IMG/VR virus record: IMGVR_UViG_3300046786_000524
Coordinates: 1-49,564 of that record
Length of the DNA stretch: 49,564 nt
Strand: one strand, 5' to 3'
From: a virus
Taxonomy: Duplodnaviria > Caudoviricetes
This document shows positions 2,626 to 49,564 of this stretch, piece by piece; positions within the stretch are counted from its first letter, which is position 1; every line of letters begins with the position of its first letter. Position numbers and translations under genes: made by a program. Below the pieces are notes generated by a model that was given only the letters and a program-made list of their open reading frames with translations, did not search any database and was not told the DNA's origin.

Positions 2626-2694
2626 GCTGAATTGCTTTTGCCATAATTGCGGCAAACTGCGAGACGGGACGCCAGATTTCTGCATGCGCGACGA

Positions 2695-2830: not shown

Positions 2831-2901
2831 GTATTCACGCGGCTTCCAGCCAGACCGATGATCAGCCAGAAACAGCGAGCCACACCCCGAGCCACACTTT
2901 G

Positions 2902-25302: not shown

Positions 25303-25629
25303 TTACCCGCCCAGGCCTTGGCCGTTGTTGCCGCCGCTCATGATTGTCGACGCACGGCCACCGCGAGAAGTAGCACCAGCCCGGCGACGCGCGCGCTGAA
25401 GCTCAAGTTCGTCAGGCATAGGCATCGCCTTATTCGCGGCCTCTTGTGCTGCAGTCAATCGGTCAAGCGCTGTCGTGTCAGGCGCCATCAGCATCGACAT
25501 GTCTTCAGCTGTACCCTTGAGAATCTTTTTTTGCGCGTTCAAATTCCAAGGATTAAGCGCAGCCTGACCAATGCGTGCCAACCGCTTCGGATTCACCGCG
25601 TTTTTGATTGATTTACCTAAACCGCTCAT
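25303..25629 (-). CDS. small virion protein between terminase and portal
   Basis: ATG 25629 overlaps the terL TAA; C-terminal RGGRASTIMSG…LGG is typical. Confidence 0.65.
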   Translation of the reverse strand: MSGLGKSIKNAVNPKRLARIGQAALNPWNLNAQKKILKGTAEDMSMLMAPDTTALDRLTAAQEAANKAMPMPDELELQRARRRAGATSRGGRASTIMSGGNNGQGLGG

Positions 25630-28322
25630 TATCTTCGTCTCCTGGCGTTCGCATGCCCTACGTTGACAGATGGACGATTTCCACCCTGCCACTGCTTGTA
25701 ATGTGTCGCCATGCGCGCGCCTTCGGTGTAGCACATGACAACCGCGTCACCACGGTCGGGTGAACGCCCTATTCGCTTTGCGACTTCTTCTTTCGGTTCG
25801 GCATGTATGACGTTTTTCCTGACCTCATAGTGCACTGCCGTCAGATCCGACAACAGCACCTGGTCAGGAGGTAGCGCAATTTGTGAGCCGCCCAATTGCG
25901 ACGGATCAAGCGCTTCACGAAACCGCCACAGGCATTCCGTTCTCTTGTTCGCGAATGTCAGTGTCCCGTCTTTTGTGCGAGCGCTTGAACCGGTCGCCCC
26001 TTTGTATGCAACCACCGGGTCATTGTTATCGTGAAAATGCTTGTATGCAGAGCCGCCGTAACCACCACCGCAGTCAATGATGATCAGTGCACCGTCCCGG
26101 CGATGCTTGACGATCTCGCCGCTGATATCTTTGCCGAGTGGCGTCTGAGATCCCGGAATAATTTGCAGCTCAGAAAACCAGCTGTCATACCTGGCCGCGA
26201 TAACGTTGTTGTCGGCCCCGCCTTGTGCGACATCTGCAGCGATCGCGCACATGGGGATACCAGCCGGCGGCATTGGCTTCCAGCGCGCTTGCGCCTCGAT
26301 GACCCATTGGGTAGGGATCAGCTGCCACGGGTGATCTTTCAAGCCAGCATCAAACCGGCCGTCGCGATACGCTTCGCGTAATTCCTTCGGCAGTGCGTCA
26401 AGAACACGTTCGTATTGACCATCTGCCGATAGATCTGGATTGTCAGAAAGCTTTGCTGGGATGAACGTGCGCGACTTCGCGTAGACGTCTTTGCCGCCTA
26501 TCTGGTGCGGCCCTGGCCCGTCAACCTCGATGTCAGCGCCGTCTTCGTCCGAGAGGAACCAGCGCAGTTCACCAGGCTTGGCAGGATTGTGATGCTTTGG
26601 ATCCAGCCACGGCGCCCAGCGTTTGATAACCCAAAGGCCTTCAGCCGACGTTGGCGGGTTACCGGTGCACACAACGCGGCAACGCTGGCCTTGAGTCGCT
26701 GACCGGTTCCAGATCGTGATAAACACGTATTGCGATTCAAGGAAGTCTGTAACCTCATCGAACACGATCAGGTCATGCGGGTCGCCCTTGTAGCGCTGCT
26801 TGTCCTGTTCCATTTCGCAGCCGCCGAACGTGATGTGTCGACGGTCATCGCGATAGACCAGATCAGAACCGTTCCACCCGTCACGATCGCCGTCGCGTAT
26901 CTTGCCGATGAATTCAGCGTCAGCCAGTTTTTTGGCGTCTTTGTTGTAGCGACGCAGGATCAGTGTGCGCTCATGCGATTCATAAGCAAGGCCACAGCCA
27001 AGGGCACTGTTGTGCGTTGTGATGAATGTCTCACCGACGCAATACAGGCCACCGACAACCGTGATGCAGTTCATCGGTACCGGTGCGCATGGCCGCACGC
27101 CAACAATGTAACGACGCTTGCACGTTGCACGCTCAGGGCTGCATTGGCGCTTCAGTTTCCGCGTCAGCTTGAAGGCGTCAAAGTCGGCAATGAACTTCAT
27201 GCGGAAATGATCAGCATGCTTTTCGCTTGCCATCGGCTTTTGCCGAATGGAGCACTTGATTCCCAGAGAGTTGATCAGGTGCAGCGCATCATGCGCGAGT
27301 GCCTTGTTGCTCAGCCCAAGCTCAATCTGACCGCGTTCGTCACATGTGCCATCTGTATCAAGAAGCCCACGCAGCAGCTCGCGACGCTGTTCAATGCTTG
27401 CCCGCAAATATTCAGGCGGAATCCTCTTTGTGCGAGGCCTTGCATCTAGTTCGGTAAATCGCCGAATCTGAACTTCCTGCTTGCGCCCTTTGTCTTTACC
27501 TTCAACGATAATTCCTGCCGCTGCAGGAAGATGCTTTTCGATATCGGCCCAATCCGCCGACATCATGATCAATTTGCCGGCCCTGGTATATCCGTCTCCA
27601 AGCCACAGCCCCAGCAGATATGGATCAATCGGCAGGGCCGCATGCGGGTGATCGATAGCCTTGATGACCTCGATCGAGTGGTTGAGCCTGCCGCCGCGAA
27701 CCGTCAGCGTTTCAAGAATGTCGCGCGTTGTTCTTATCGATCCAGCTGGAACCGCAATGTCATGCTGCCGCGCCTTGTTGATCGCTATGATCGATGACGA
27801 TACCCACGGCTTCTTGCTGGCTTGCTTTGCCCTGCTTGGTCTTGCTGCCTTGCGTTTTTCCCGCCACTCGGGGGATGAACGCAAAAGCCTGTCACGCTCC
27901 CGGTAATCCCATGTCAACCAGCGATGCCTGGCGTCAGCAACGACAATCTCACCAGTGCTGAACTCAACCTCATAAGCGTCTGGCTTATGTTCTGTCGGAT
28001 GCCGCCAGATAACCAGTACCGGCGCGCCTTCTGGCCCGTAGACGTAATCACCAGGCTTCAGGTCGCCATGCCGCTTGAAGCCGGTCGGGTCCGTTGAGAG
28101 CGGCACCGGAACCGGAGTGTTTTCGTCCAGAAGTTTCCCGCCGCCTGCCTGGCCGCCGTAAAACAGTTCGTCAGCCTCAGAAAACCAAGCGTCCGTTTGC
28201 GGCCCAGGGTTCGGCACAAACGTTGCCCCTGCCGTCGCCGTCATCGCTGTTTCGACGATCTCCTTTTGCACATCAGCTGGCAATGCAGCCAGCCGATTCA
28301 GGATGTCATCAAGTGGATTCAT
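25629..28322 (-). CDS. terL: terminase large subunit containing an intein
   Basis: Walker A GGQAGGGK|S split by the intein; Walker B IVFDE; CTGNPP; nuclease motifs ADVAQGGAD and SPDRGDA. Confidence 0.92.
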   Translation of the reverse strand: MNPLDDILNRLAALPADVQKEIVETAMTATAGATFVPNPGPQTDAWFSEADELFYGGQAGGGKLLDENTPVPVPLSTDPTGFKRHGDLKPGDYVYGPEGAPVLVIWRHPTEHKPDAYEVEFSTGEIVVADARHRWLTWDYRERDRLLRSSPEWREKRKAARPSRAKQASKKPWVSSSIIAINKARQHDIAVPAGSIRTTRDILETLTVRGGRLNHSIEVIKAIDHPHAALPIDPYLLGLWLGDGYTRAGKLIMMSADWADIEKHLPAAAGIIVEGKDKGRKQEVQIRRFTELDARPRTKRIPPEYLRASIEQRRELLRGLLDTDGTCDERGQIELGLSNKALAHDALHLINSLGIKCSIRQKPMASEKHADHFRMKFIADFDAFKLTRKLKRQCSPERATCKRRYIVGVRPCAPVPMNCITVVGGLYCVGETFITTHNSALGCGLAYESHERTLILRRYNKDAKKLADAEFIGKIRDGDRDGWNGSDLVYRDDRRHITFGGCEMEQDKQRYKGDPHDLIVFDEVTDFLESQYVFITIWNRSATQGQRCRVVCTGNPPTSAEGLWVIKRWAPWLDPKHHNPAKPGELRWFLSDEDGADIEVDGPGPHQIGGKDVYAKSRTFIPAKLSDNPDLSADGQYERVLDALPKELREAYRDGRFDAGLKDHPWQLIPTQWVIEAQARWKPMPPAGIPMCAIAADVAQGGADNNVIAARYDSWFSELQIIPGSQTPLGKDISGEIVKHRRDGALIIIDCGGGYGGSAYKHFHDNNDPVVAYKGATGSSARTKDGTLTFANKRTECLWRFREALDPSQLGGSQIALPPDQVLLSDLTAVHYEVRKNVIHAEPKEEVAKRIGRSPDRGDAVVMCYTEGARMATHYKQWQGGNRPSVNVGHANARRRR
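27009..28133 (-). mobile_element. class 3 intein with LAGLIDADG homing endonuclease (375 aa)
   Basis: Starts LLDENTPVP, ends ITTHN|S; block B HRW, block F MNCITV; LLGLWLGDG and LLRGLLDTDG motifs. Confidence 0.88.
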
Positions 28323-36411: not shown

Positions 36412-36662
36412 AACAAACCCCTTGCCCGTCCCATTTGTTCTTTGTGGCGCTTTCTTGCGTGTTCCTTGATGTGCTCGATCACCGGCAGCACTCGCGGATA
36501 TTTTTTCTTCAGCAGTTCCCTATGATCATCATCGGCATCCCTATTCCTGGCATTGCTTTGGATGTACAGCGCCAAGCAAAACACCCGAAACTCCCCGCTA
36601 CACATGTCGGCTTCCCTGCCGTAGATGTCCCTGAATAAAACCGGTGCAGGAGTAACCATCAA
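36408..36662 (-). CDS. hypothetical protein
   Basis: 84-aa coupled ORF. Confidence 0.5.
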   Translation of the reverse strand: MMVTPAPVLFRDIYGREADMCSGEFRVFCLALYIQSNARNRDADDDHRELLKKKYPRVLPVIEHIKEHARKRHKEQMGRARGLL

Positions 36663-37480
36663 ATGGATCGCTCACTCAAAAGCCGGAAAGCTTCAGCGGC
36701 GCATTGTGGTACTTGCCCATTGCCAAGGGCTTTAATTCTGTCCACCCTAGCGGCCACCCCATCAGCCACTCGACCCACGTCGGGTTCAGCCTGCCAGTCT
36801 GGCCATTCAATGCGGCTTCCCGCTCTATCGTGTAATCTATCCGGTCGTCTGTATCCGCCCTGTTGTGGTTCTTGCTCCACCCCTTGTGCGCTGTCGCTGT
36901 CGCTGTCGGAAACATTCTCACCGCCGTAGCCAACCCGGTGCCTCTCTTCGTTCCCTGTTTTGGCGCGTTGTTGTTGCCGTGCACTGTCGGCGTTGGCAAC
37001 AATCCAGATGCGGTCACGTTTGTGACGTGCTCCCACGTCGTTTGCTCCCAGCACTCCCCATTGAGCATCAAACCCCATCGCGGCCAGGTCTCCGAGTACA
37101 ATTCCAAGTCCGCGAGAAACGAGCGCTGGGGAGTTCTCCACAAACACAAATCGTGGTCGAACTTCGCAAATAATCCGAGACATCTGCTTCCAAAGCCCTG
37201 AACGCTCTCCGCCAATCCCTTTGCCTGATCCGGCAACGCTGATGTCTTGGCACGGAAACCCGCCAGAAACCACGTCAACAATTCCGCGCCACGGCTTTCC
37301 GTCAAAAGTGCACACGTCAGACCAAATCGGGAAAGGCTCAAGGGCTCCATCGTTTTGTCGTTGCGACAGAACGGCTGCGGCGTAGGCATCACGTTCAACT
37401 GCGCACACGGTTCGCCATCCGAGCAATTTGCCTGCGAGTATTCCGCCACCAGCGCCTGCGAAAATAGCCAACTCATTCAC
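36659..37480 (-). CDS. C5 cytosine DNA methyltransferase, large (alpha) chain
   Basis: Motif I FAGAGG, IV GFPCQ, VI ENS, VIII HKRDRIW, X KALGNG. Confidence 0.9.
   Translation of the reverse strand: MNELAIFAGAGGGILAGKLLGWRTVCAVERDAYAAAVLSQRQNDGALEPFPIWSDVCTFDGKPWRGIVDVVSGGFPCQDISVAGSGKGIGGERSGLWKQMSRIICEVRPRFVFVENSPALVSRGLGIVLGDLAAMGFDAQWGVLGANDVGARHKRDRIWIVANADSARQQQRAKTGNEERHRVGYGGENVSDSDSDSAQGVEQEPQQGGYRRPDRLHDRAGSRIEWPDWQAEPDVGRVADGVAARVDRIKALGNGQVPQCAAEAFRLLSERSI
36676..37476 (-). CDS. overlapping alternative-frame beta chain of the C5 methyltransferase
   Basis: Long stop-free second frame containing LLPTPT and the motif IX-like RLNPTWVEWLMGWPLGWT; true start likely internal. Confidence 0.65.
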   Translation of the reverse strand: MSWLFSQALVAEYSQANCSDGEPCAQLNVMPTPQPFCRNDKTMEPLSLSRFGLTCALLTESRGAELLTWFLAGFRAKTSALPDQAKGLAESVQGFGSRCLGLFAKFDHDLCLWRTPQRSFLADLELYSETWPRWGLMLNGECWEQTTWEHVTNVTASGLLPTPTVHGNNNAPKQGTKRGTGLATAVRMFPTATATAHKGWSKNHNRADTDDRIDYTIEREAALNGQTGRLNPTWVEWLMGWPLGWTELKPLAMGKYHNAPLKLSGF

Positions 37481-38888: not shown

Positions 38889-40213
38889 ATGTCAAGCGCC
38901 TGTTTTCTGTATTGTTTTTTTGGCTCAGGGGCAGGCGGGAAGTATTCGGATCCCGGCTGAAAACGCATGTACCCAAAATACTGATCCAGCCAGAAGCTGC
39001 CCTTTTGGGAGTGCCGCGACGCTTCGCATATCAGTTCTGTTTTGCCTTCGTCGACGGTATGCAGGAAGAAGATCGCATCGGCGTCTTGCTCGATCTGACC
39101 GGAACCACGCAGGTCGGAGAGCTTGGGGCGGGCGTCAGTGCGGATCTCGATTGAGCGGTTCATTTGAGCAAGAGCAAGGACGGGAACATTCAGTTCCTTC
39201 GCCATACGCTTGAGCCCAGTGGACACCGAACCAATGCGAAGCGCGTCCGTTTCGCCGGAGGCGTTGACCAGCTGGAGATAATCGACGACGACAAAATCAA
39301 GCGGGCCCTTTGCTGCCATTGCCCGGCAACGCGCGCGGATGTCGGCAATAGTCACGTCACTGCCGTCGTCAATGAAGAACGGCAGGCCTTGAGTTTTTGC
39401 GACGTAATCGTTGAGTCGTGACCACTGAAAATCCTCAAGCTTTTTAGGATCTTTGATCAGGTGAAACGGGATGTTCGCGGCATTGGACGCCATCCGATTG
39501 ATCAGCTGGAAGGACGGCATTTCAAGCGAGAAGACGGCGACGGCTTTGCCCTGGTTAAGAACGGCTTGAGCGATGTTCAGCGCAAGAATCGTTTTGCCTT
39601 GCTTGGGGCGGCCGGCAAACACCAGCAGTTCCCCGCCGTGCATGCCGCCAGTGGCGTCGTCAATATCGGGAAATCCAGTAGACAACCCGGTAAGCCCTGA
39701 CTCTGAATTGAACACGCGGTCAAGCTGGTCATACCAATCACGCAGCGATTGCTTTGCAGCTTTCAGCCCTCGATCGGTTTTAACCTTGATAAGATCCAGA
39801 ACGGATTGCTGCGCCCTGGCGATCTTTTCGGATACGTTCATTGACGGGTCGTGGCATGACTGGCAGACGGTACGACCAGCCGCATCAAGTTTCCGCAGCG
39901 TTGCATACTCTTCGACGCGGGCCGCGTAGTGGGTAACGTTTGCCGCTGACGGGGTGTTTCTCATGACCTCAGCCAGCCAAACAGTCCAGTCGCCGGCTGG
40001 GGCAACGGTTTCAAGCCGGTCTGAGACGGCAAGGAAGTCCACTGCAGGCGTTTCTGAGGCCATACCCTGTAGGGTGGCATAGGCTTGCCGTGCGCGAAGG
40101 CTGTGAAGCGAATCCTCAGCCATCACAGCGGCGACGTCAGCGCACTGGCCAGGGTCTGTCAGCAAACCACCCAATACCGCAAGCTCAAGATCGTGGTTAA
40201 ACAATTCGCTCAT
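38885..40213 (-). CDS. dnaB: replicative DNA helicase DnaB-like
   Basis: GRPKQGKT, FSLEM, VVVDYLQL, LAQMNR, DLRGSGQIEQDAD. Confidence 0.93.
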   Translation of the reverse strand: MSELFNHDLELAVLGGLLTDPGQCADVAAVMAEDSLHSLRARQAYATLQGMASETPAVDFLAVSDRLETVAPAGDWTVWLAEVMRNTPSAANVTHYAARVEEYATLRKLDAAGRTVCQSCHDPSMNVSEKIARAQQSVLDLIKVKTDRGLKAAKQSLRDWYDQLDRVFNSESGLTGLSTGFPDIDDATGGMHGGELLVFAGRPKQGKTILALNIAQAVLNQGKAVAVFSLEMPSFQLINRMASNAANIPFHLIKDPKKLEDFQWSRLNDYVAKTQGLPFFIDDGSDVTIADIRARCRAMAAKGPLDFVVVDYLQLVNASGETDALRIGSVSTGLKRMAKELNVPVLALAQMNRSIEIRTDARPKLSDLRGSGQIEQDADAIFFLHTVDEGKTELICEASRHSQKGSFWLDQYFGYMRFQPGSEYFPPAPEPKKQYRKQALDI

Positions 40214-40219
40214 CGGTTA

Positions 40220-40948
40220 TCACTCCACGACCTTGAGAAAATTATCTTCACGCAGAAGGAAATCGAAATTCGCTCCCTCCCAAAATCCGTCTTTGTACTG
40301 GCGCCCGTTCATCCACGCCTCGTTGTGAGTCGCCAGCTTGAAATACTTGCCCCACCATTCGAGGTTTTTGGTTTCTGTCCCCAAATCCCAAATCTTCTTG
40401 ATCAGGCGCTTGCGCTTGTCGTTGCGAACTCTCACCAGCGGTCTGTTGAACGGCAAGGCAACGACCTCGTTGTACAAGTCAAAAATCTGGTCATACGGAA
40501 TCGCTGATGCTTTGGGTCTTATCGGAGTGACATTGGGTGGCGAAGGGGGCTCGTTGTCGTCTGCGTCAGCAGATGACAAATCTTTTTCTGTCTCTGTCTC
40601 TGTCTCTGTCTCTGGCATAGCATCTTGATAGCGGTCTGCTAGCGCATTGCTAGCATCTTGTACCACTTCAAAGAAACCGTTTAAAATCAACTCTTTAATG
40701 GTTGCCCTAATCGTCAGCTCATCAGAACGGAATCGCCAAGCCAGTTTTTTCTCGTCGACGGTGATAAGCCCCTCTGGATGCTCACTTGCAAGCAGCCAGT
40801 AGCACGGTGCTAGCGCTTTGCTAGCAAGCTGCAAAGCATGAAACTCATAGTTATCAAGCAGCGACTTATGGAGCTTGATCCAAGGCGGATTTCTATCCTT
40901 GTAATGTTGGAACTCGTTCCAGTTTTTGGGCTTGATAACCATGCTCAT
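40220..40948 (-). CDS. phage replication initiator (O-like)
   Basis: NWNEFQHYKDRNPPWIKLH N-terminus, ETETETE linker, ANFDFLLR…KVVE C-terminus; upstream of DnaB. Confidence 0.8.
   Translation of the reverse strand: MSMVIKPKNWNEFQHYKDRNPPWIKLHKSLLDNYEFHALQLASKALAPCYWLLASEHPEGLITVDEKKLAWRFRSDELTIRATIKELILNGFFEVVQDASNALADRYQDAMPETETETETEKDLSSADADDNEPPSPPNVTPIRPKASAIPYDQIFDLYNEVVALPFNRPLVRVRNDKRKRLIKKIWDLGTETKNLEWWGKYFKLATHNEAWMNGRQYKDGFWEGANFDFLLREDNFLKVVE
40615..40840. repeat. iteron-like repeats (likely replication origin) inside the initiator gene
   Basis: 11-bp periodic units GGCATAGCATC/TTGATAGCGGT/CTGCTAGCGCA/TTGCTAGCATC near 40615-40660 and GTGCTAGCGCT/TTGCTAGCAAG near 40807-40828. Confidence 0.55.
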
Positions 40949-41160
40949 CAGTCGGCCTCACTGGTTACGCGCTCATCCCAAATGGAATCATCAGCAACAA
41001 GGCGGGCCAACTCAGATGCAACCGCTTCCGCTTGACGCCGAGACAAAACGCAAATGACCTCGTTGCCATCCTCGTCGTACTGCAGGATGGAAATCCGATT
41101 TTCCTGATTGATGAAAATCTTTGTTTCGCGTGTCGATGGAAGGAAAAACATCCCTAACAC
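40948..41160 (-). CDS. hypothetical protein
   Basis: 70-aa ORF, TGATG-coupled to the initiator. Confidence 0.55.
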   Translation of the reverse strand: MLGMFFLPSTRETKIFINQENRISILQYDEDGNEVICVLSRRQAEAVASELARLVADDSIWDERVTSEAD

Positions 41161-41201
41161 CCCTCATAAAATCCCAAAGAAAAACGTCTACAATCAGAAA
41201 G

Positions 41202-41396
41202 TCAGGCTGCCGACTTCACTGTGGTAGGCGGGTCTTCAGCCTTCAGTTTTCCGTTTGTCAGTTTTTCAATTTGGATCTGACGCAGATGCGGGATGCCGTG
41301 TTTTTTCCATTTGTTGATCGCGCCAGGAGTAACGCCGCACTCGCGTGCCAGCGCTCGATAGGTGCGAAAATGGTCTTTTGCTTCTGCAAGAGTCAT
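41202..41396 (-). CDS. cro: Cro-like HTH regulator
   Basis: ALARECGVTPGAINKWKKHGIP…IEKLTNGKLKA; first gene of the divergent operon. Confidence 0.75.
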   Translation of the reverse strand: MTLAEAKDHFRTYRALARECGVTPGAINKWKKHGIPHLRQIQIEKLTNGKLKAEDPPTTVKSAA

Positions 41397-41404
41397 GAGA
41401 GATA

Positions 41405-41609
41405 TACCTAGTTGTGTACCTAGGTATATTCTTGCTTAAACTTTGGTGTATGGCAAGCAGGGATTGCAACTTTCAAAATTTACCAAGGTAAACATCAGGC
41501 ATACACAAGCCATATATCTAGGTATATTTTTTTGTGCACAACAGTTGACTAAAGTCGATACGAACATTAACCTAGGTATATGTCGCCGCATACCTAGGTA
41601 TCTGGCGAC
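41405..41609. promoter_or_regulatory. divergent control region with about six TACCTAGGTA palindromic operators
   Basis: Copies at 41405, 41417, 41481, 41515, 41569 and 41591; + strand promoter TTGACT(41545)-17 nt-TAACCT(41568) overlaps one operator. Confidence 0.7.
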
Positions 41610-41637
41610 TTCTTGAAAAACATCAGGGAGATCACCA

Positions 41638-41799
41638 ATGGTAACCCCACATCCATCGATCAAGAAGATGCCAGTCGTTCGCCTGCGCAGCAGCTACAAA
41701 GCCGTGTGGGTAGATGATCGCAATGAGCGTCTGCAAGCCGAAATCAAAACCGGGATCCGCAATGGTAACGCCATCGTTATCAAGGCCGGTGCGAAATGA
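41638..41799 (+). CDS. small basic early protein (53 aa)
   Basis: GGGAG RBS, ATG 41638, ATGA overlap with the next gene. Confidence 0.55.
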   Translation: MVTPHPSIKKMPVVRLRSSYKAVWVDDRNERLQAEIKTGIRNGNAIVIKAGAK

Positions 41800-42113
41800 A
41801 TCATTCAATCTGGCCAAAATTGCTTGTGAATTTGGACCTCAAACTTGATCGCGAATACAAACATGATGACGCAGACAGCTGCTTTCGCGCAGCAAACCGC
41901 ATCAGCACTCGCAGCAAATTCGTCAATCGCAAATTCATTCTCGCCAACTTTTGCAGGCCGGCCGCAATCGCAGCAAAACGCGACGAAATGCAGCAAATCG
42001 TTCGCGAAATAAAACGCATGAAATCAGGCGAATGTCCAACGTTGACAGCAGCATTGGCCGCTGATCTCACGCGCGTCAAAAAAGAAATCAAAGCGCTGGA
42101 AGCAGCGCAATGA
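41796..42113 (+). CDS. hypothetical protein
   Basis: 105-aa coupled ORF. Confidence 0.6.
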   Translation: MNHSIWPKLLVNLDLKLDREYKHDDADSCFRAANRISTRSKFVNRKFILANFCRPAAIAAKRDEMQQIVREIKRMKSGECPTLTAALAADLTRVKKEIKALEAAQ

Positions 42114-42331
42114 TCAACATTGACTACCACGCAAACAGCGGAATCGTTTCGCTGCAGGTCGATCTCGATTGCAATGCGCCGCAAATTTTCATCGGTGACC
42201 AAAACATTGGCGAGCTGATCCACAGTCACAATTTTTGGGAAATCGTCAGGCAAGCCGAAAAGATCGCAAAACAGGACGCCGATGACGAGCGCGGCGAATA
42301 CCTACACACAATGGGATACGGAAAACAATGA
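42110..42331 (+). CDS. hypothetical protein
   Basis: 73-aa coupled ORF. Confidence 0.6.
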   Translation: MINIDYHANSGIVSLQVDLDCNAPQIFIGDQNIGELIHSHNFWEIVRQAEKIAKQDADDERGEYLHTMGYGKQ

Positions 42332-43122
42332 CCTCAATAGTCGCGATCCGCGCATCAAGCCTGGCCGAGCTTTTCGATTGCCCTGCCAGATGGGAAGCAA
42401 AAAACCTGCTTGGAATGAGAATGCCGAGCAGCGGCGCCGCAACGCTGGGCACGGCCGTGCATGCTGGTACCGCAGTGTTTGATCAGTCCGTCATTGACGG
42501 ATCCGGGATCAGCATTGACGAAGCGGCCAGCGCAGTCGTAGATGCCATCTACAAGCCCGAGCAGGATGTTGCATGGGATGAAGACATGCAGCCCAAAACC
42601 GCCGAAAAGATCGCCCTGGCACTGCATACCAAATACTGCAGCGAAATTGCCCCAAAGCAGAATTATGTCGGCGTCGAAATCACATGCGAACGACTTGAAA
42701 TAACTGACCTTGGCATTGCGCTTACCGGCACAACCGACAGGATCCGCAAAACCGCAGAAGGCCTTGGCGTGTCGGATCTTAAAACCGGTGGCCGCGCGGT
42801 CGGATCCGATGGCCGCGCAGTGACATCAGGTCACGGCCCGCAATTGGGCGTTTATGAGTTGCTTGCAGAGCGATCCATTGGCCAGCCAATCACCGCGCCC
42901 GCTGAAATCATTGGCATGCAGACCGCCAAAACGACGCAGAAGGTCGGCACCGGCCAAATCAAAAACGCCAAAGCTGCATTGCTTGGCGATTCAGAATCTC
43001 CCGGATTGCTTGAGCATGCGGCCGGGATCATCCACGCAGGACGCTTTTACGGAAACTCGAAGTCAACGCTGTGCAGTGCACGCTACTGCCCCCGTTTTTC
43101 CACCTGTAAATTTAAAGGTTAA
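42328..43122 (+). CDS. PD-(D/E)XK (RecB/RecE-like) exonuclease
   Basis: DCPARW, LGTAVH, GTTDRI, DLKTG, QLGVY and a C-terminal Cys cluster; next to RecT. Confidence 0.8.
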   Translation: MTSIVAIRASSLAELFDCPARWEAKNLLGMRMPSSGAATLGTAVHAGTAVFDQSVIDGSGISIDEAASAVVDAIYKPEQDVAWDEDMQPKTAEKIALALHTKYCSEIAPKQNYVGVEITCERLEITDLGIALTGTTDRIRKTAEGLGVSDLKTGGRAVGSDGRAVTSGHGPQLGVYELLAERSIGQPITAPAEIIGMQTAKTTQKVGTGQIKNAKAALLGDSESPGLLEHAAGIIHAGRFYGNSKSTLCSARYCPRFSTCKFKG

Positions 43123-43126
43123 TCAC

Positions 43127-44197
43127 ATGAGCCAAGCCACAAACATCGCAGACCTGAAACGCACCAGCACCATGATCGCAAAAGATGCCGGTATCGGAAG
43201 CGTTAAAAAGTTTTTCGAGTCGCAGAAAGCAACCATGGCGGCAGTTCTGCCGAAACACATGGACGCCGAGCGCATGCTGAAACTCGCCCTGGGCGCGCTG
43301 CGTACCACGCCAAAGCTGATGCAGTGCCGCACAGATTCTCTCTTTGGTGCCATTGTGCAGTGTGCGCAATTGGGCCTTGAGCCAAACACCCCGCTTGGTC
43401 ATGCCTATCTGCTGCCGTTCGAGAACCGCCAGAAGGGCATTACAGAGGTGCAAATTATCCTTGGATATAAAGGCCTGATTGATCTTGCGCGCCGCTCAGG
43501 GCAGATCGTCAGCATATCAGCGCACGAGGTTTGTCAGAAAGACCACTTTGAATATGAGTACGGTCTTGATGAAAAGCTTGTTCATCGCCCCGCCCTTGGC
43601 GATCGCGGTCAAGTCATTGCCTTCTACGCAGCCGCAAAGCTTGTCGGTGGCGGGTATGCATTCGAGGTTATGAGCGCCAAGCAGATCGAAGAGATCCGCG
43701 ACGCAAGCCAGAACTACAAATTTGCAAAGGACAAAACCAAGACCGTTTGGGGTCAGCACTTTGTCGAGATGGGCCGCAAAACGGTACTGCGCCGCCTCTT
43801 TAAGTACCTGCCCGTATCAATCGAATTGGCAACCGCTTCCGCCCTTGATGACAGATCGTCACGCGGAGAAAGCCAAGGCCTGGATGAGGCATTGAATGGC
43901 GATTTCAGCGTCATCGACTCGGACGCAGAGCGTTACCAGGACGATAACGAAACTGTCGATACCAGCACAGGAGAGGTTACCCGCAACGAACCCAATGCCC
44001 TTGGCCTTGGCCTGCAGGACGCAATTGCAGCTGCGCGCCAGGGCGACATCGACACGGCCATGGACATCAGTCGCGGCCTGAACGAGCGCGATCGCCAAGA
44101 GCTTGAGCGGCATTTGCCTCTTGAACAAGCAGAAGCACCCGCAGAACCGCAACGCGCACCGGCACCACGCCAGCGCCAAGCCCGCAACCTCGACTGA
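43127..44197 (+). CDS. recT: RecT single-strand annealing recombinase
   Basis: AQLGLEPNTPLGHAYLLPF, GYKGLIDLARRSG, EMGRKTVLRRLFKYLP. Confidence 0.92.
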   Translation: MSQATNIADLKRTSTMIAKDAGIGSVKKFFESQKATMAAVLPKHMDAERMLKLALGALRTTPKLMQCRTDSLFGAIVQCAQLGLEPNTPLGHAYLLPFENRQKGITEVQIILGYKGLIDLARRSGQIVSISAHEVCQKDHFEYEYGLDEKLVHRPALGDRGQVIAFYAAAKLVGGGYAFEVMSAKQIEEIRDASQNYKFAKDKTKTVWGQHFVEMGRKTVLRRLFKYLPVSIELATASALDDRSSRGESQGLDEALNGDFSVIDSDAERYQDDNETVDTSTGEVTRNEPNALGLGLQDAIAAARQGDIDTAMDISRGLNERDRQELERHLPLEQAEAPAEPQRAPAPRQRQARNLD

Positions 44198-44240
44198 ACC
44201 ACGGGGCGGTGAAAGCCGCCCTATTTGGAGCGACTGAACA

Positions 44241-46109
44241 ATGAAAATTTCAAGAATCGAACTCACCAACTTTCAGGGGCTGCGCAGTGCGCGGCTACAG
44301 CTCACCAAGCCCGTGCTGATGGCTACTGGCGCCAACGGTGCCGGCAAGTCATCGCTGCTTGAAGGGATCCGCCTGGCGCTGCTTGGCAACCCCGAGCGTG
44401 TAGGCCTGAAAAAGGAATTGAGCAAGCTTGTCACCGAAGGCGCCAAGCGCGGTGGCGTAGACGTCATCACCGAGAACCAGCTGCACTTTGCCTACACACT
44501 GCCAGACGGCAAGCACACAGCGCCGGCAGAGCTCGGCAACCATATCGGCTTTGTGCTTGATGCCCAGAACTTTGCGCGGGCAACGCCTGATGTCAGACGC
44601 GCAACTTTATTTGCGCTGACCGGATGCAAGGTAGACGCCGCCGAGGTGACAAAGCGCCTGATCCAGCGCGGCGCAACGCAGGAACGCATTGACCTTGTGC
44701 TGCCAATGCTGCGCTCAGGATTCCCAGCCGCCGAGGGCTTTGCCAAAGAGCAGGCCACCCAAGCCAGAGGCGCCTGGCGCGCAGTGACTGGCGAAACCTA
44801 CGGCGAGAAGAAGGCAGATGGATGGAAGCCTGAAGCCATAGCATGCCCAGACCAGCAGGAAATGGCTGACCTGAATGACGCCGTGATTGCGCTATCGCAA
44901 GAGAAAGACCGGGCGCAAGAAACGCTGGGCCGGGCACGGCAGATCTCAGAGAGTATTGCCTCCGATCGCGATGCGCTTGCAAAGGCAATAGAGAAGGCGA
45001 ACCAGCTGCCACGTCACAAGCAAAAGCTTGCCGTCGACCAGGCAGAACTCGACAAGTGGGAGGCGAAGGTTGCAGAAGCCAAGGCCGCATACGTGCAGAC
45101 AAAGCCAGCCGCCCGCCCTACGGCCAAACTCGACAACGCAATGCTCGACGCCTTTGCGGTTGTAGCAAGTGAATGGCTGGATCTGGTCAGCAAGTCACAA
45201 GGCGTGGTCAATAACTTCAACGTTTGCGAAAACTGGGATCAGCATGCAGGCCTGATCAATCGCACCACCGCCCACGTGTCGACCTACAAAGCCCAGCACG
45301 GCGAACCGCTGACACAAGACGACAGCGACACGCCTGACGTTGCAGCTCCCAACGCGGCCGCACTGGAAGCGTCACGGAACATGTTTGCCCGAGCAGTAGC
45401 GAACGACTTGCGGGACATCGTTGCCGCTGAAGCCGCAGAAGAACAGGCCCAAAAACTTACTGACAAAATCAACGAAGTAAAAGAGATCCGGGTATCCGAC
45501 TTCGTGGAAGCGGTCAACGCAGCGACCGAAAAGCTGAAGGCCGCCGAGGCACGACTTGATGCGCTGAAGGATGCAGCCTACGCATTCACCACCGCACAAA
45601 CCAAAGAGGCAGACGCAGCCAGGCACCACGCCGACGTTGCCGGATGGCTTCTGATCGCTGACGCATTGTCACCCAGCGGGATCCCCGCCGAGATCCTGGC
45701 CGGCGCCCTTCGCCCCGCCAATGACGCATTGCACCAGGCCGCATCATTCGTTGACTGGCCGCGCGTGCAGATCAGCACCGACATGGAGATCACCGCAGCT
45801 GGACGGCCTTACGCCCTGCTCAGCGAGTCGGAGAAGTGGCGCGCTGACTGCCTGCTTGCCCTGACCATTGCAAAGCTGTCAGGCCTCAAGCTGATCGTTC
45901 TGGATCGCTTTGATGTGCTCGACATGCAAGGCCGGAATGATCTGATCGATCTACTGGATGACGCAGCCACCAGCTGCGATATCGAAACCGCCATTGTCGC
46001 CGGCACGCTGAAAACAGCGCCGACCGGCATGCCTGAAACCTTTGATGTCGCGTGGATCGAAAACGGCGAGATCAACAATCTGAAACTCGACGGAGAGCAA
46101 GCAGCATGA
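44241..46109 (+). CDS. Rad50/SbcC-like coiled-coil ABC ATPase
   Basis: Walker A GANGAGKS, long coiled coil, LSESE signature, IVLDRFD Walker B region. Confidence 0.8.
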   Translation: MKISRIELTNFQGLRSARLQLTKPVLMATGANGAGKSSLLEGIRLALLGNPERVGLKKELSKLVTEGAKRGGVDVITENQLHFAYTLPDGKHTAPAELGNHIGFVLDAQNFARATPDVRRATLFALTGCKVDAAEVTKRLIQRGATQERIDLVLPMLRSGFPAAEGFAKEQATQARGAWRAVTGETYGEKKADGWKPEAIACPDQQEMADLNDAVIALSQEKDRAQETLGRARQISESIASDRDALAKAIEKANQLPRHKQKLAVDQAELDKWEAKVAEAKAAYVQTKPAARPTAKLDNAMLDAFAVVASEWLDLVSKSQGVVNNFNVCENWDQHAGLINRTTAHVSTYKAQHGEPLTQDDSDTPDVAAPNAAALEASRNMFARAVANDLRDIVAAEAAEEQAQKLTDKINEVKEIRVSDFVEAVNAATEKLKAAEARLDALKDAAYAFTTAQTKEADAARHHADVAGWLLIADALSPSGIPAEILAGALRPANDALHQAASFVDWPRVQISTDMEITAAGRPYALLSESEKWRADCLLALTIAKLSGLKLIVLDRFDVLDMQGRNDLIDLLDDAATSCDIETAIVAGTLKTAPTGMPETFDVAWIENGEINNLKLDGEQAA

Positions 46110-46160
46110 GCGTCATCATATTCCGGCGACGGCTACGGCTACGGCGACGGCTCCGGCTAA
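46106..46160 (+). pseudogene. collapsed Gly-X (GDGYGYGDGSG) repeat gene
   Basis: TCC GGC GAC GGC TAC GGC TAC GGC GAC GGC TCC GGC TAA (46122-46160) is out of frame with the coupled ATG at 46106. Confidence 0.5.
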
Positions 46161-46221
46161 TAACGATTGATTTAATCGCCCGCCCGAGCGCATCGGGCAC
46201 CAACAAACTCAAGGGGTATTT

Positions 46222-46527
46222 ATGGGGCATGATGTAATTGGCTTTAAGCAAGCGCCAACCGACGAAAACGGAGAGACAAACAAAGAAATAGCATCGTTTT
46301 ATCGTGGTGCATTCAACAAACTGGGCAGAGAAATATACCGCGCGCTTGAGTGCGTTGAGATGGATTGCGGAGTGTCTGGGTGTGGTGGCTATTTGGAGTT
46401 TTCGCACGATCAGCTAAAAGCGGCTCACGATAGGCTTGCGGAACATTTGCAGCCCGAGCGTGATTTTTTGGCGGCGCTGATTGACTACACCAAAGATGGC
46501 AAGCCGTGTTTTATTGCGTTCTGGTAA
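46222..46527 (+). CDS. hypothetical protein
   Basis: 101 aa with AAGGGG RBS; last gene before the cassette array. Confidence 0.7.
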   Translation: MGHDVIGFKQAPTDENGETNKEIASFYRGAFNKLGREIYRALECVEMDCGVSGCGGYLEFSHDQLKAAHDRLAEHLQPERDFLAALIDYTKDGKPCFIAFW

Positions 46528-46589
46528 ACGCTTGCCCGTGCGTAACGGGCACCCTTTCGCATGTGCGTTGTGAGAGCGCACAGCCGAAA

Positions 46590-46645
46590 GAGTAACCCCA
46601 AGTTCAGCGGCCCGCCTGCGGGTCCGCTGCAACGCCCGGTTAGGC
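46590..46645 (-). mobile_element. attC-like site 1 (array-terminal)
   Basis: Minus strand GCCTAAC CGGGC GTTGCAGC GGACCCGCAGGCGGGCC GCTGAAC TTGGG GTTACTC. Confidence 0.8.
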
Positions 46646-46745
46646 CATGCCACCGACACCGCCCGATGTGGGCACCACACCAAGCTGGGCCGCCAGGCCG
46701 AGCGTTTGATTCAGAGGCTCACGGAGTGGGCCGGATAGGAGCGAT

Positions 46746-47252
46746 ATGAAGATTGCAGTGAGCGAGGAAAAAAAGGTACTTGACGCATGCTGCGGCAGCC
46801 GCATGTTTTGGTTCGACCGGAAGGACGCGCGTGCCGTGTTTGTGGACAAGCGCCGGGAGCGCCACACACTGCCAGACGTCTCGAGCAAGGGCGGCTCGCG
46901 CGATCTGGTGATTGACCCAGACCACCAAGCCGACTTCACCGCGCTGCCATTTGCCGATCAGACATTCGCCCTTGTCGTGTTTGACCCGCCTCACTTCGAG
47001 CGCAACGGCGCCACTGGCTGGGTCGGGCTGAAGTACGGAACGCTGAAGGGCGACTGGCGCGGGATGTTAAGGGCCGGATTTGCCGAGTGTTTCCGGGTGC
47101 TCAAGCCAGATGGCACGCTGATATTCAAGTGGTGCGAAGACGAGATTCCCGTGTCGCAGATTTTGGCATTGACGCCGGAGAAGCCACTGATCGGACACCG
47201 CAGCGGGAAGCAGCAGAAAACGCACTGGATCGCGTTCCTGAAAGGGGCCTAA
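46746..47252 (+). CDS. SAM-dependent methyltransferase (cassette A)
   Basis: VLDACCGSRMFW, VVFDPPH, ECFRVLKPDGTLIFKW; the stop TAA lies in the attC core. Confidence 0.85.
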   Translation: MKIAVSEEKKVLDACCGSRMFWFDRKDARAVFVDKRRERHTLPDVSSKGGSRDLVIDPDHQADFTALPFADQTFALVVFDPPHFERNGATGWVGLKYGTLKGDWRGMLRAGFAECFRVLKPDGTLIFKWCEDEIPVSQILALTPEKPLIGHRSGKQQKTHWIAFLKGA

Positions 47253-47302
47253 CCAGACAGCTAAGCGGCGGCGTAGCCGTCCGCTTGAGCGCCCGGTTAG
47301 GC
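47247..47302 (-). mobile_element. attC-like site 2
   Basis: Minus strand GCCTAAC CGGGC GCTCAAGC GGACGGCTACGCCGCC GCTTAGC TGTCTG GTTAGGC. Confidence 0.88.
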
Positions 47303-47326
47303 GGCACACGATAGAAAGGAATTGAG

Positions 47327-47998
47327 ATGGCAGAGAAAGTGGTGATCGGGAACGCGGAACTTTGGCACGGAGACTGCCGCGAGGTGCTGCCGCTGCTGCC
47401 TAAGCATGACCTACTGCTGACGGACCCGCCCTACGGGATTGGCACTGGCGCTGCATCTGTTGGAAGTGGCGGGAAGCTGTGGGGCGCACAGGATTGGGAT
47501 TTAGTCATTGCCAACGATGCGGTGCAGATGGCGCTTTCAAAAGCTGGCGCGGCGATTGTTTGGGGTGGGAATTACTACCCGCTGCCGCCTTCTCGGTGCT
47601 GGCTGCTGTGGGACAAAAAGCAATCGGACGCTTGGTATTCAACGGCGCACTTTGAGATGGCCTGGACAAACATGAACAAGAACGCCCACGCATTCCGAAT
47701 GTCGCAAGTAGAGGCGCATACAGGGATGAACAAAGAACACCCATCACAAAAGCCGCTGCGGCTGATGGCCTGGTGTTTGGACCAAGCTGGCAAGCCCGCC
47801 ACGGTGCTGGACCCGTTCATGGGGTCGGGTAGCACTGGCGTGGCGTGCGTGCAGCTTGGCAAGGCGTTCACCGGCATCGAGCGCGAGCGCAAGTATTTCG
47901 ATATTGCGTGCGAGCGCATAGCCCGAGCCCAAGCGCAAGGCCAGTTGCTGCCGCCTGAACCAGTGGCCGCGCCTGAACAACAGACGATGGAACTGTGA
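47327..47998 (+). CDS. beta-class amino (N6-A/N4-C) DNA methyltransferase (cassette B)
   Basis: HGDCRE, TDPPYG, HPSQKP, LDPFMGSGSTG. Confidence 0.9.
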   Translation: MAEKVVIGNAELWHGDCREVLPLLPKHDLLLTDPPYGIGTGAASVGSGGKLWGAQDWDLVIANDAVQMALSKAGAAIVWGGNYYPLPPSRCWLLWDKKQSDAWYSTAHFEMAWTNMNKNAHAFRMSQVEAHTGMNKEHPSQKPLRLMAWCLDQAGKPATVLDPFMGSGSTGVACVQLGKAFTGIERERKYFDIACERIARAQAQGQLLPPEPVAAPEQQTMEL

Positions 47999-47999
47999 C

Positions 48000-48057
48000 G
48001 CCTAACGCCTGAATTAACCGGCGCCGTCAGGCGTCCGGGTTGAATGAAAGGTTAGAA
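48000..48057 (-). mobile_element. attC-like site 3
   Basis: Minus strand TTCTAAC CTTTC ATTCAACC CGGACGCCTGACGGCGCC GGTTAAT TCAGGC GTTAGGC. Confidence 0.88.
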
Positions 48058-48059
48058 CC

Positions 48060-48278
48060 ATGGACAGACACGAATTACAAAAAGATGGGAAGCACCCTGC
48101 GCCATGCGCGAGGTTTTGTGAAGCCAACGCTTTCAAAATCGAACTTAGAAACCTGCAACTTGAAAATTTCAGGCTGCGCGAGGCAATATGCAGAACGCTA
48201 CAAGAAAACAAGCATCTTGCAGACGGAGAAGATTGCACGCTGATCCACATTAAGCGTGCGATGCAATCTAACCCCTGA
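48060..48278 (+). CDS. hypothetical Cys-containing protein (cassette C)
   Basis: 72 aa, HPAPCARFCEA…HLADGEDCTL; fills the space between sites 3 and 4. Confidence 0.65.
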   Translation: MDRHELQKDGKHPAPCARFCEANAFKIELRNLQLENFRLREAICRTLQENKHLADGEDCTLIHIKRAMQSNP

Positions 48279-48320
48279 ATTAAGCCGCGCCTTGGCGTCC
48301 GGTTGAACTGGCGGTTAGAC
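48266..48320 (-). mobile_element. attC-like site 4
   Basis: Minus strand GTCTAAC CGCCA GTTCAACC GGACGCCAAGGCGCG GCTTAAT TCAGGG GTTAGAT. Confidence 0.85.
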
Positions 48321-48348
48321 CCAGCCACAACACCGATAAGAAGACCAT

Positions 48349-48615
48349 ATGGACAAGGACATGCACCACACAGAGTGCCCCCATGGTGGGTACAAAGAAA
48401 AGATCGACCTGACCGTCGAACCATGGGCCACGCTGGCGCCCCTGTGCTGGGACAACCCGTCAGCGTTCCGCCTTGGCTGGGCGGCAGAAGAACATGGCGT
48501 CAAGCAGAACCCGTTCAAAAGCGAGTTCACGCGCGGCGTTTTTGAGGCGGGTCGCCAGAGATGCCGTGAGGCTGGCACGTCAAACACCAAGACGCTGCAT
48601 GCACCTGGGGTCTAA
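48349..48615 (+). CDS. hypothetical protein (cassette D)
   Basis: 88 aa; the stop TAA lies in the attC core. Confidence 0.65.
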   Translation: MDKDMHHTECPHGGYKEKIDLTVEPWATLAPLCWDNPSAFRLGWAAEEHGVKQNPFKSEFTRGVFEAGRQRCREAGTSNTKTLHAPGV

Positions 48616-48665
48616 CGGCTTGGTAACCGGCTGCCGCAGGCAGTCCGGTTGACCTGGTGTTAGGC
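48610..48665 (-). mobile_element. attC-like site 5
   Basis: Minus strand GCCTAAC ACCA GGTCAACC GGACTGCCTGCGGCAGCC GGTTACC AAGCC GTTAGAC. Confidence 0.85.
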
Positions 48666-48699
48666 CACTGGTTGAGAAACGAACGAAAGGACGACTGAC

Positions 48700-49302
48700 A
48701 TGGAATTTCAAGACTTCCCGAAGATGGCGCGGCTGACCCGCGAAGTGATCGTGACCGAGAAGATCGACGGCACGAACGCGCAGGTTTTCATTGGCGAAGA
48801 TGGCACACTGCTGGCCGGCAGCCGCACGCGCTGGATTACCCCGGCCGATGACAATTTCGGCTTTGCCGCGTGGGTTGAAGCGCACCGCGACGAACTGCTG
48901 ACGCTGGGGCCTGGCCGCCACTTTGGCGAGTGGTGGGGTGCCGGCATTCAGCGCCGGTACGGCTTGAGCGAAAAGCGGTTCAGCTTGTTCAACGTGCAGC
49001 GGTGGGCGTTGCACGGCACCGCGCCGAAGACCTACCCGACCGCCGACCCGCGAGTGACGCGCACGCAAGACGTGCTGCCACCCTGCTGCGGGCTGGTGCC
49101 GGTGCTGTATCAAGGCCCGTTTGACACTGCGGCAGTTGATCTGTGCATTGAAAGCCTGCGGCTCACCGGCAGCGTGGCCGCGCCCGGCTTCATGAAGCCC
49201 GAGGGCGTGGTGGTCTTCCACACGGCTGGCAACGTGGGCTTCAAGAAGACCGTGGAGAAGGACGAATTGCCGAAGGCTCTTGCCGCGCTGCAAGTGGCCT
49301 AA
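48700..49302 (+). CDS. RNA ligase, Rnl2-like nucleotidyltransferase domain (cassette E)
   Basis: Motif I TEKIDGTN, GSRTR, FGEWWG, FSLFNV, VPVLYQG, PEGVVV, FKK; the stop TAA lies in the attC core. Confidence 0.85.
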   Translation: MEFQDFPKMARLTREVIVTEKIDGTNAQVFIGEDGTLLAGSRTRWITPADDNFGFAAWVEAHRDELLTLGPGRHFGEWWGAGIQRRYGLSEKRFSLFNVQRWALHGTAPKTYPTADPRVTRTQDVLPPCCGLVPVLYQGPFDTAAVDLCIESLRLTGSVAAPGFMKPEGVVVFHTAGNVGFKKTVEKDELPKALAALQVA

Positions 49303-49353
49303 CGCAGAAGTCAGCGGCGCCGGCACGGCGTCCGCTGGACTGCCGGGTTATAC
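49297..49353 (-). mobile_element. attC-like site 6
   Basis: Minus strand GTATAAC CCGGC AGTCCAGC GGACGCCGTGCCGGCGCC GCTGACT TCTGC GTTAGGC. Confidence 0.85.
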
Positions 49354-49374
49354 GGCTGGAACTACGGAGTGACC

Positions 49375-49564
49375 ATGCTGGAACTGGACAAGATTCACTG
49401 CGGCGACAACTGCGACTTGCTCGGGCAACTGCCGCGAGAGTGCATTGACTTGGTGGTGACAAGCCCGCCATACGATGACCTACGCACCTACGGTGGACAC
49501 TCTTGGGATTTCTTCGGGGTGGCGTGGCAACTGAAGCGCGTGCTGAAGCCTGGCGGCGTAATTG
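49375..49564 (+). CDS. beta-class amino DNA methyltransferase, truncated by the window end (cassette F)
   Basis: GGAG RBS; MLELDKIHCGDNCDLLGQLPRECIDLVVTSPPYDDLR…RVLKPGGV. Confidence 0.85.
   Translation, partial: MLELDKIHCGDNCDLLGQLPRECIDLVVTSPPYDDLRTYGGHSWDFFGVAWQLKRVLKPGGVI

Follow-up and report, generated by a model that had tools for sequence, protein, structure and literature searches.

A phage-borne row of six attC sites with inverted genes, probably assembled and shuffled by an integron integrase acting in trans

What is the mobile unit in a row of attC sites carried by a phage, and how are such units moved? The question is raised by the window analysed here, a whole stretch of 49 564 nucleotides from a virus of the Caudoviricetes, which holds six attC sites in 2.8 kb near its right end with no intI nearby and thus fits the definition of a CALIN. 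The intI gene of a complete integron is absent from the record: searches with PF00589 and TIGR02249 gave 0 matches in this 94%-complete genome. Clusters of attC sites in phages have already been published as CALINs, and phage sites have been recombined with attI1 under IntI1, as reported in the portions of Qi 2023 (PMC9892861) that we draw on. Judging from sequence comparison, we favour with fairly high confidence a phage-borne row of six attC sites with inverted genes, which would have been built and reshuffled by IntI supplied in trans by a host or another phage.

A preliminary description of the locus stated that cores pair within cassettes better than within sites, and our measurements agree. 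All five complement pairs are present where they were said to be, as are the core mismatches quoted for sites 3, 5 and 6. Counted outward from the GTT/AAC triplet, complementary runs are 8, 8, 6, 9 and 11 bases within units, the R'/R'' complementarity restored when the cassettes are circularised, and 4, 7, 5, 6, 5 and 4 bases within sites 1-6. By run length the observed assignment of cores is the single best of 120 permutations (p = 1/120), and it ranks 1/720 with all six left cores allowed; for the 7-base cores alone it ranks only 6/120, because GTTAGGC/GCCTAAC recurs. Mean runs within units and within sites were 7.35 vs 4.68 in 220 distinct viral units and 7.0 vs 5.22 in 203 units from bacterial genome contigs. 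Such pairing is textbook integron-cassette anatomy and ordinary for integrons, in most cassettes of which it extends to 9-11 bases (Bouvier 2009, PMC2727003; Nivina 2016, PMC5027507). The proposal that these are integron-type cassettes, each formerly a circle with a self-complementary site and mobilised singly, is supported. That this happened recently finds support only in near-identical copies beside other neighbours (the ligase unit is 99.0% identical in locus L081), but core pairing itself gives no date. Nor can core pairing separate two opening points of the circle, since both put the same two cores in one circle.

The architecture of the sites does bear on the opening point. Terminal AAC/GTT triplets lie in inverted R boxes in 6/6 sites, and in the hairpin of the + strand the L boxes show an unpaired L'' base (G in sites 2-6, C in site 1), an unpaired T further in and an unpaired central spacer. 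In integrons the unpaired G and T belong to the attC bottom strand, and a G follows the AAC of R' (Bouvier 2009, PMC2727003). Because the unpaired bases lie on the + strand here, this is the bottom strand; the sites point along the - strand, and therefore the crossover AA|C falls in the left core and each hairpin belongs to the gene that follows it. The R and L boxes, the unpaired spacer, G and T, and the bottom-strand AAC crossover are all shared with integron attC sites (Bouvier 2009, PMC2727003; Nivina 2016, PMC5027507), and the length of 55-58 bp is at or just below Bouvier's 57-base lower bound. A G follows the left AAC in 295/410 viral and 314/338 genome sites. Our site profile matches the TJE1 site in the same orientation as the bottom strand described as cloned in the part of Qi 2023 used here, and of 12 bacterial contigs with intI, 11 have this gene on the same strand and to the right, the arrangement expected of the canonical layout. 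Folding the five circles gave + and - strand energies less than 4 kcal/mol apart in either direction, which does not separate the strands, and purine content (0.47-0.57) does not discriminate between them. The preliminary description had read the + strand as canonical, gene then attC, and its account included neither the inversion of every gene nor the self-pairing of site 2 over 7/7 bases. This geometry has to be reversed: instead of a gene on the top strand with attC at its 3' end, the 5/5 complete units and the sixth gene all have the gene on the bottom strand.

The six sites are thus on the - strand and the units, each a hairpin plus the following gene, on the + strand. Site 1 (46590..46645, 56 bp), with an unpaired T at 46623 and an unpaired base in the box 46626-46633, is in canonical terms the last of the array. 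Its left core GAGTAAC, the R' box, has no GTTACTC partner in 40000-46600, and the outer bases of this core likely derive from the original target site. Unit 1 (46596..47252, 657 bp) carries a DNA methyltransferase gene (46746-47252; phrog_954, E 5e-70) whose TAA stop sits within the next left core; proteins 97-98% identical occur in L278-L280 and L297, and homologues of the gene stand beside other neighbours in L202 and L297. Site 2 (47247..47302, 56 bp) opens unit 2 (47253..48005, 753 bp), with an N6/N4 DNA methyltransferase gene (47327-47998; PF01555, E 2e-17; phrog_67); the body of this site recurs at 0.91 identity ahead of that gene in L413 and, at 0.93 identity or more, in L342 and L428. 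Site 3 (48000..48057, 58 bp) and a 72-aa ORF (48060-48278) without Pfam or PHROG match make up unit 3 (48006..48271, 266 bp, 48.5% GC), and in run X6 a contig of 294 bases aligns over 48004-48272, from AAC to AAC. Unit 4 (48272..48615, 344 bp) joins site 4 (48266..48320, 55 bp) to an 88-aa ORF (48349-48615), likewise without a Pfam or PHROG family, and a contig of run X4 matches as far as 48616 and then diverges. Site 5 (48610..48665, 56 bp) precedes the RNA-ligase-family gene (48700-49302; PF09414, E 6e-14; phrog_548) of unit 5 (48616..49302, 687 bp), of which 92-99% identical DNA is found in L081-L088 with different neighbours and mostly different hairpin bodies. Finally, site 6 (49297..49353, 57 bp) and the first part of a DNA methyltransferase gene (from 49369; phrog_67, E 9e-15; homologues of about 260 aa) form unit 6 (49303..49564), which is cut by the contig end.

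Judged by comparative breakpoints only, the crossover is in the AAC of the bottom strand, that is, at AA|C of the left core. In pairs of loci with the same left gene the body was kept in 0/16, identity dropping to background directly after AAC, and among 192 near-identical body pairs only the right neighbour was common in 21 and only the left in 0. Likewise, in five contigs sharing the leader downstream of site 6, the body of this site is identical at 42-44/44 bases (5/5), and the 40 bases upstream match only 7-16/40. The preliminary description had the circles opened at G|TT, as would be the case for canonical cassettes (gene then attC) opened in the right core of the + strand. Core pairing fits that model equally well, and it has in its favour that bodies are replaced right up to GTT in 22/52 same-gene pairs and that bodies 2 and 6 run into other genes after GTT in contigs; but the unpaired bases are on the wrong strand for it, the body never travels with the left gene, and at the start of arrays there is a site, at their end often only a bare core. 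This model is largely refuted as the main route, and we regard it as very improbable. A pure AA|C model does not account for everything either. Among viral pairs with the same right gene, the body stays with the gene in only 14/94, which it leaves unexplained, and a contig of run X18 tracks the phage backbone to 46595 and departs there, one base short of the C expected to be common to the crossover partner.

Hairpin bodies are, in fact, often exchanged while the gene behind them stays the same. The whole body is kept in only 12/52 same-gene viral pairs, and therefore the right core appears to be a second exchange point, so that part of the G|TT proposal stands, in that bodies would be swapped at this core, or close to it, as well. 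Inheritance differs among units, the body of unit 6 being kept in the 5/5 contigs with the exact leader and that of unit 5 not being kept in L081. In bacteria the body was retained in 72/93 pairs, a figure to which a few genomes with uniform sites contribute most, so that it offers no clean contrast to viruses. Body replacement might proceed by a less frequent exchange in or next to the right core, driven by IntI recombining the top strand or by RecET-type recombination.

Inverted cargo is not peculiar to this window. By protein anchoring and a home-made hexamer model, 193 of 220 viral units were inverted vs 5 canonical, and the site was on the gene's strand in 230/235 protein-anchored viral loci; of 194 genome units found by pattern, 107 were canonical and 45 inverted, the latter mostly with weak scores. 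At a score of at least 20 the viral units were 66 inverted vs 0 canonical and the genome units 9 vs 79 (in these counts, as in the pair counts above, pairs and loci are mutually non-independent). An earlier orientation test, on the longest ORF near the site, was dropped for its many ties (left side of viral sites: 27 canonical, 18 inverted, 67 ties; n=121). No published description of inverted phage cassette arrays was found in our literature search. Among the best genome matches of the cassette genes, which lie on short or MAG contigs and were examined in part, none proved to be a close homologue located in a bacterial array next to intI. Cultured phages shared gene fragments only (25 records, none covering more than 18%), and a plasmid search with site 4 returned 1939 matches, mostly short, with no useful annotation among the 15 matches listed. 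The cassette genes of the window point away from the expected position of Pc.

To the left of the array, on the + strand and co-oriented with the cassette genes, lie early recombination genes (42328..46109: PD-(D/E)XK exonuclease, RecT and SbcC-like ATPase), a candidate source of both read-through transcription and homologous exchange. In the relative L196 the SbcC-like gene is present, and the 2.7 kb after it give no attC match. The cassette genes are probably transcribed from the early operon on the left, in which case only inverted cargo would be expressed, and it would be silent behind a host Pc. Another idea is that the hairpins are RNA elements of the operon, terminators or processing sites, resembling attC by chance, and they are indeed intergenic and on the transcribed strand. 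However, no Rfam family reached threshold (best E 0.013, below the gathering score and inside a gene), the full attC box layout is present, the same pattern detects canonical arrays beside intI in bacteria, and neighbours switch exactly at cores, which makes this explanation hardly credible.

The position of the early genes bears on a further alternative: a single capture from an integron, IntI now being inactive and shuffling occurring only by the phage's RecET-type recombination or by replication slippage at hairpins. The adjoining RecT and exonuclease genes, the lack of an integrase in the record and the 4/52 same-gene pairs in which nothing of the body but its 3' arm is retained, the product expected of a crossover within the hairpin, are all in keeping with it. 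We nevertheless consider it unlikely: breaks at AAC are sharp between partners with only 3-4 bases in common, lone units are flanked on the left by a mismatched core and on the right by a bare one (for example in L009), core complementarity is kept though cores vary among variants of one gene, and the same type of array occurs in phages with a full IntI. On phage contig L282, an inverted array that includes a 90%-identical homologue of cassette 1 adjoins a full IntI (464 bits; cut-off 265) and has RecE-like, SSB and HNH neighbours. No IntI above cut-off was found in 50/50 array-bearing viral records picked before any integrase search, which weighs against the favoured reading, and two viral contigs with a full IntI (L589 and L590) had no attC site by profile or relaxed scan. 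In the favoured reading, IntI supplied in trans would excise and insert units as circles through the folded + strand.

New units may be taken up at an attI-like core that would lie outside the contig, where the array ends on the right. A matching core follows downstream of 68/106 right ends (shuffled mean 7), 20/76 continue as AAC-N6/7-TAG (background 1.8%), and this motif lies between array and intI in 7/11 bacterial contigs. Left ends also had upstream partners above chance (28/101; shuffled mean 3.6), which probably come from missed sites. In L017, L019 and L021, too, sites open with GAGTAAC as left core, but their upstream DNA is unalignable with the window, and no conserved left landing pad was found. 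Outside integrons, GWT sites can also receive cassettes through IntI (attG, SALINs; Loot, bioRxiv 10.1101/2022.09.11.507474), and attG-type insertion would account both for the left core of site 1, which has no match, and for the lone units in relatives; the attI-like motif of the 20/76 ends and the CRGM motif of attG hotspots (Loot) lie, however, on opposite sides of the crossover. The attI-like motif with a core has no match in bases 1-3000 of the window, and an attI at the array head would fall beyond 49564, about 6% of the genome being missing at the end adjoining the array. The next site was predicted to start with about GTATAAC, and homologues of the last gene bear this out: the 3/3 long-enough metagenome contigs with an identical 23-base leader (five found, two too short) end in GCCGTATAAC, as do 9/12 viral loci whose leader starts GTTATAC, the other three running off, having another core and having no core within 1.1 kb, respectively. 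Reading the next site from the window start by circular closure was ruled out, as the window has no terminal overlap and the record is classed linear. Runs X1 and X2, which contain 96% of the window's words and may be the source data, were left out of this support and gave no extension past the contig end.

Core pairing and phage attC clusters are known; inverted cargo and the exchange of hairpin bodies are less ordinary. Like the window, the CALINs in the portion of Qi 2023 (PMC9892861) compared here have several attC sites, no intI and orphan DNA methyltransferase cargo. The TJE1 array tested there is canonical (sites -, CDS +), whereas ours is inverted; the MW202573 array is inverted by our scan, to which the text of the paper at hand makes no reference, and that text describes no body exchange, no comparison of neighbours and, for virulent phages, no attI-like ends in the absence of intI. 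Compared with integron cassettes, gene and site are opposed in all six units here and the body often does not stay with the gene.

Control of orientation in integrons is held to exist so that cargo is readable from Pc. Here such sites are found with reversed cargo across a broad range of phages, which would separate phage and host cassette pools by orientation alone. The inversion of the genes, and the occurrence of the same genes behind different hairpins in related phages, suggest that phages probably maintain their own pool of cassettes. More tentatively, and with the odds in our judgement somewhat against it, there may be a mirror-image phage cassette economy, with attI and sometimes intI in the early operon, inverted anti-restriction and repair cargo silent in host integrons, host defence cassettes that would be silent within phages, and attC hairpins exchanged between genes as independent modules through both cores. 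Were this true, cassette remodelling, perhaps cassette birth, would be in progress. How cassettes gain or change attC is an open question, and one gene behind several hairpins, or one hairpin before many genes, provides natural before/after pairs for such changes. Integrons are described, in the part of the literature drawn on here, as stores of anti-phage systems, to which a phage-side store of methyltransferases and ligases on integron machinery would form the direct counterpart. In the complete phage integrons (L282, L351, L588 and those in the portion of Qi 2023 considered) intI lies to the right of the array in bottom-strand orientation, unlike the window record, which is without intI; in L282 cargo and intI share a strand, the cargo genes leading into intI as a single phage operon.

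The window is an entire virus record of 49,564 bases, linear and 94% complete by CheckV, that carries head and tail genes of podovirus type together with a lambdoid O-like initiator, DnaB, RusA, an exonuclease, RecT and an SbcC-like ATPase. Six hairpin sites of 55–58 bp each lie at 46590–49353, and a scan of the full record with our own profile found no further attC-type site. The cargo between them comprises three DNA methyltransferase genes, one RNA-ligase-family gene and two small ORFs without known family, all on the + strand and in the same direction as the early recombination genes. Two stable hairpins (46540–46590, no match in Rfam) stand immediately 5' of site 1 and are common to the related locus L195 as far as its contig end. 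Further upstream, the same ORF begins after the SbcC-like gene in the window (46106–46160) and in locus L196 (8397 onward), the first 18 bases being alike; it is a long gene in L196, and in the window it gives way to a short GGCTAC/GGCGAC repeat.

On the + strand, each hairpin leaves a T unpaired, and also one base within an 8-base box of the 3' arm. On sequence criteria this is the bottom strand of attC, with the left core as R' and the genes antisense to the canonical layout, because three controls agree. A G directly follows the left AAC in 295/410 viral and 314/338 genome sites (among the matches listed plus, for both, the protein-anchored loci); our profile matches the TJE1 oligonucleotide, cloned as bottom strand by Qi et al. 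(2023; PMC9892861), in the window-type orientation; and intI lies to the right of the array on the same strand in 11 of 12 bacterial contigs with intI within reach. The array is of the phage CALIN kind (an attC cluster lacking an integron integrase), and differs from canonical cassettes in orientation and in the modularity of its hairpins.

The core pairs and mismatches quoted in the preliminary description are all present. Complementary runs are 8, 8, 6, 9 and 11 bases within units versus 4, 7, 5, 6, 5 and 4 within sites, and the true core assignment was the best of 120 permutations by run length (6 of 120 using 7-base cores alone). The effect is general, with mean runs of 7.35 versus 4.68 in viral units (n=220, among the matches listed plus protein-anchored loci) and 7.0 versus 5.22 in genome units (n=203, among the matches listed), and Bouvier et al. 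(2009; PMC2727003) describe R'/R'' pairing as reaching 9–11 bases in most cassettes; core pairing is therefore real but already known, an ordinary feature of such cassettes. The window ends have no terminal overlap, hence the next site is unreadable from the record itself. The GTATAAC-type end predicted after unit 6 was nevertheless borne out in homologues: five contigs with an identical leader were found, two of them too short, and the other three all end in GCCGTATAAC, an end also present in 9 of the 12 viral loci whose leader begins GTTATAC. Where variants of the same gene carry a different right core, the terminal core is usually its complement; mismatched chimeras also occur among them (for example, loci L005, L011 and L015).

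Since core pairing fits G|TT and AA|C opening alike, neighbours were compared to locate the unit limits. Viral site pairs with a common left gene kept the body in 0/16 cases, identity falling to background immediately past AAC, and pairs with a common right gene kept it in 14/94 versus 0.8% among random pairs. Where near-identical bodies had a single neighbour in common, it was the right one in 21 pairs and never the left. The five same-leader contigs of unit 6 carry the same body (42–44/44 bases) with unrelated DNA 5' of the left core. Public-run contigs diverge from the window at 46595, 47253, 48272, 48616 and 49304, each at, or at most 1 base from, a left-core AAC, and one such contig covers unit 3 from AAC to AAC. 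The left core of site 1 has no partner upstream, which fits outer bases derived from the target. The units, mobile among unrelated phages, are thus bounded at the left-core AAC, and the G|TT opening proposed earlier does not hold as their main limit.

What survives of G|TT is hairpin exchange, probably at or near the right core. The comparison covered 52 viral pairs from 18 families that share leader and gene yet differ in their left neighbour: 12 keep the whole body and 4 the 3' arm only, 14 show resemblance in the last 7 bases, and 22 differ up to GTT. Locus L081 has the ligase unit at 99.0% identity, yet the bodies on both flanks differ; 169 body pairs at ≥0.93 identity are flanked on both sides by unrelated genes, and eight further loci contain body 6. 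A single excision between two right cores would give each gene its neighbour's hairpin. The swap may proceed through top-strand IntI recombination, which Nivina et al. (2016; PMC5027507) show to exist at rates 1,000–10,000-fold lower, or alternatively through RecT-type recombination. In L013 (1535), L161 (960–1080) and L673 (past the methyltransferase), long hairpins seem by eye to hold a ribosome-binding site and small-ORF start in the loop.

A single pattern scanned over viral and genome collections gave at least 125 and at least 135 loci, respectively, and at least 884 sites once protein-anchored loci were included. In anchored viral loci, 230/235 sites lie on the strand of the gene. By a hexamer model, distinct viral units (n=220, among the matches listed plus anchored loci) were 193 inverted, 5 canonical, 2 tied and 20 without ORF, and pattern-found genome units (n=194, among the matches listed) 107 canonical, 45 inverted, 8 tied and 34 without ORF; at scores ≥20, among the matches listed, the pattern-found viral units were 66 inverted versus 0 canonical and the genome units 9 versus 79. 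Of 82 viral cargo ORFs, 23 matched a PHROG family and 7 a named one (two methyltransferases, a Mom-like protein, a queuine tRNA-ribosyltransferase, an endonuclease, a pyrophosphohydrolase and an excisionase). Bacterial arrays L445, L458–L461, L483–L484 and L523–L526 hold many near-identical units of ~190–260 bp with weak coding signal. By our own scan of two phage arrays from Qi et al. (2023), TJE1 is canonical, unlike the window, whereas MW202573 (L583, 1854–3883) is inverted, like it; the figures or Supplementary File S1 of that paper may already display inverted arrows for MW202573. A search of mainly open-access literature found no paper on inverted phage cassette arrays or on attC body exchange.

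Searches of the whole window with PF00589 and TIGR02249 gave no match, and IntI scored above cut-off in 0/50 array-bearing viral records, one of which has an internally deleted intI remnant right of an inverted array. Full IntI occurs in phage loci L282, L351 and L588, which were chosen through a prior match; in L282 a homologue with 90% identity to cassette 1 sits in an inverted array leading into intI, with RecE-like, SSB and HNH genes as neighbours. Because such arrays exist, IntI is the likely enzyme; for the window array it would have to be supplied in trans or be encoded in the 6% of the genome that is missing. Broken intI remnants beside inverted arrays (L585:7746–8100, G040; L231:5499–5717; L081:2818–3213, the last on the opposite strand and to the left of its array) suggest repeated intI loss in phages. 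Full IntI is also encoded at L589:7001–7960 and L590:7001–8083, on viral contigs 39 and 49 kb long, with no attC of the window type inside either locus.

In relatives, 68/106 rightmost sites are followed downstream by a matching core (shuffled mean 7), 56 of these 68 with no body detected past that core, and 28/101 leftmost sites have an upstream partner, in excess over the shuffled mean of 3.6. The core continues as AAC-N6/7-TAG at 20/76 right ends versus 1.8% of all TAAC and 0/501 bodies; we read this motif as attI-like because it also sits between array and intI in 7/11 bacterial contigs. We infer that IntI would work through the folded + strand, new units entering at the attI-like core on the right, and that cassette genes would be expressed from the phage early operon, inverted cassettes being silent if placed behind a host Pc. 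Should replication and the genes run in the same direction, the lagging-strand template would be the bottom strand, a location that favours folding (review, PMC8946536); for the window array this is speculation.

Elsewhere, small early genes at 188–2482 (+) are linked by a repeated ribosome-binding junction, GAGGGG-N-RTGA, whose six + matches (188, 451, 739, 1083, 1631 and 2467) all fall in this interval, with two places on the - strand; no attC lies at these junctions, which are possibly microhomology joints. A C5 DNA methyltransferase ORF (36659–37480, -) is overlapped by a 266-aa ORF in another frame of the same strand, and L282 has a comparable pair matching two different methyltransferase PHROGs; the window pair may be a two-frame split enzyme. 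The terminase large subunit (25629–28322, -) has LAGLIDADG and Hom_end domains and likely contains an intein, and a polyvalent virion protein of 3086 aa (4880–14140, -) combines LPD22, ART-PolyVal, PBECR5 and GNAT domains.
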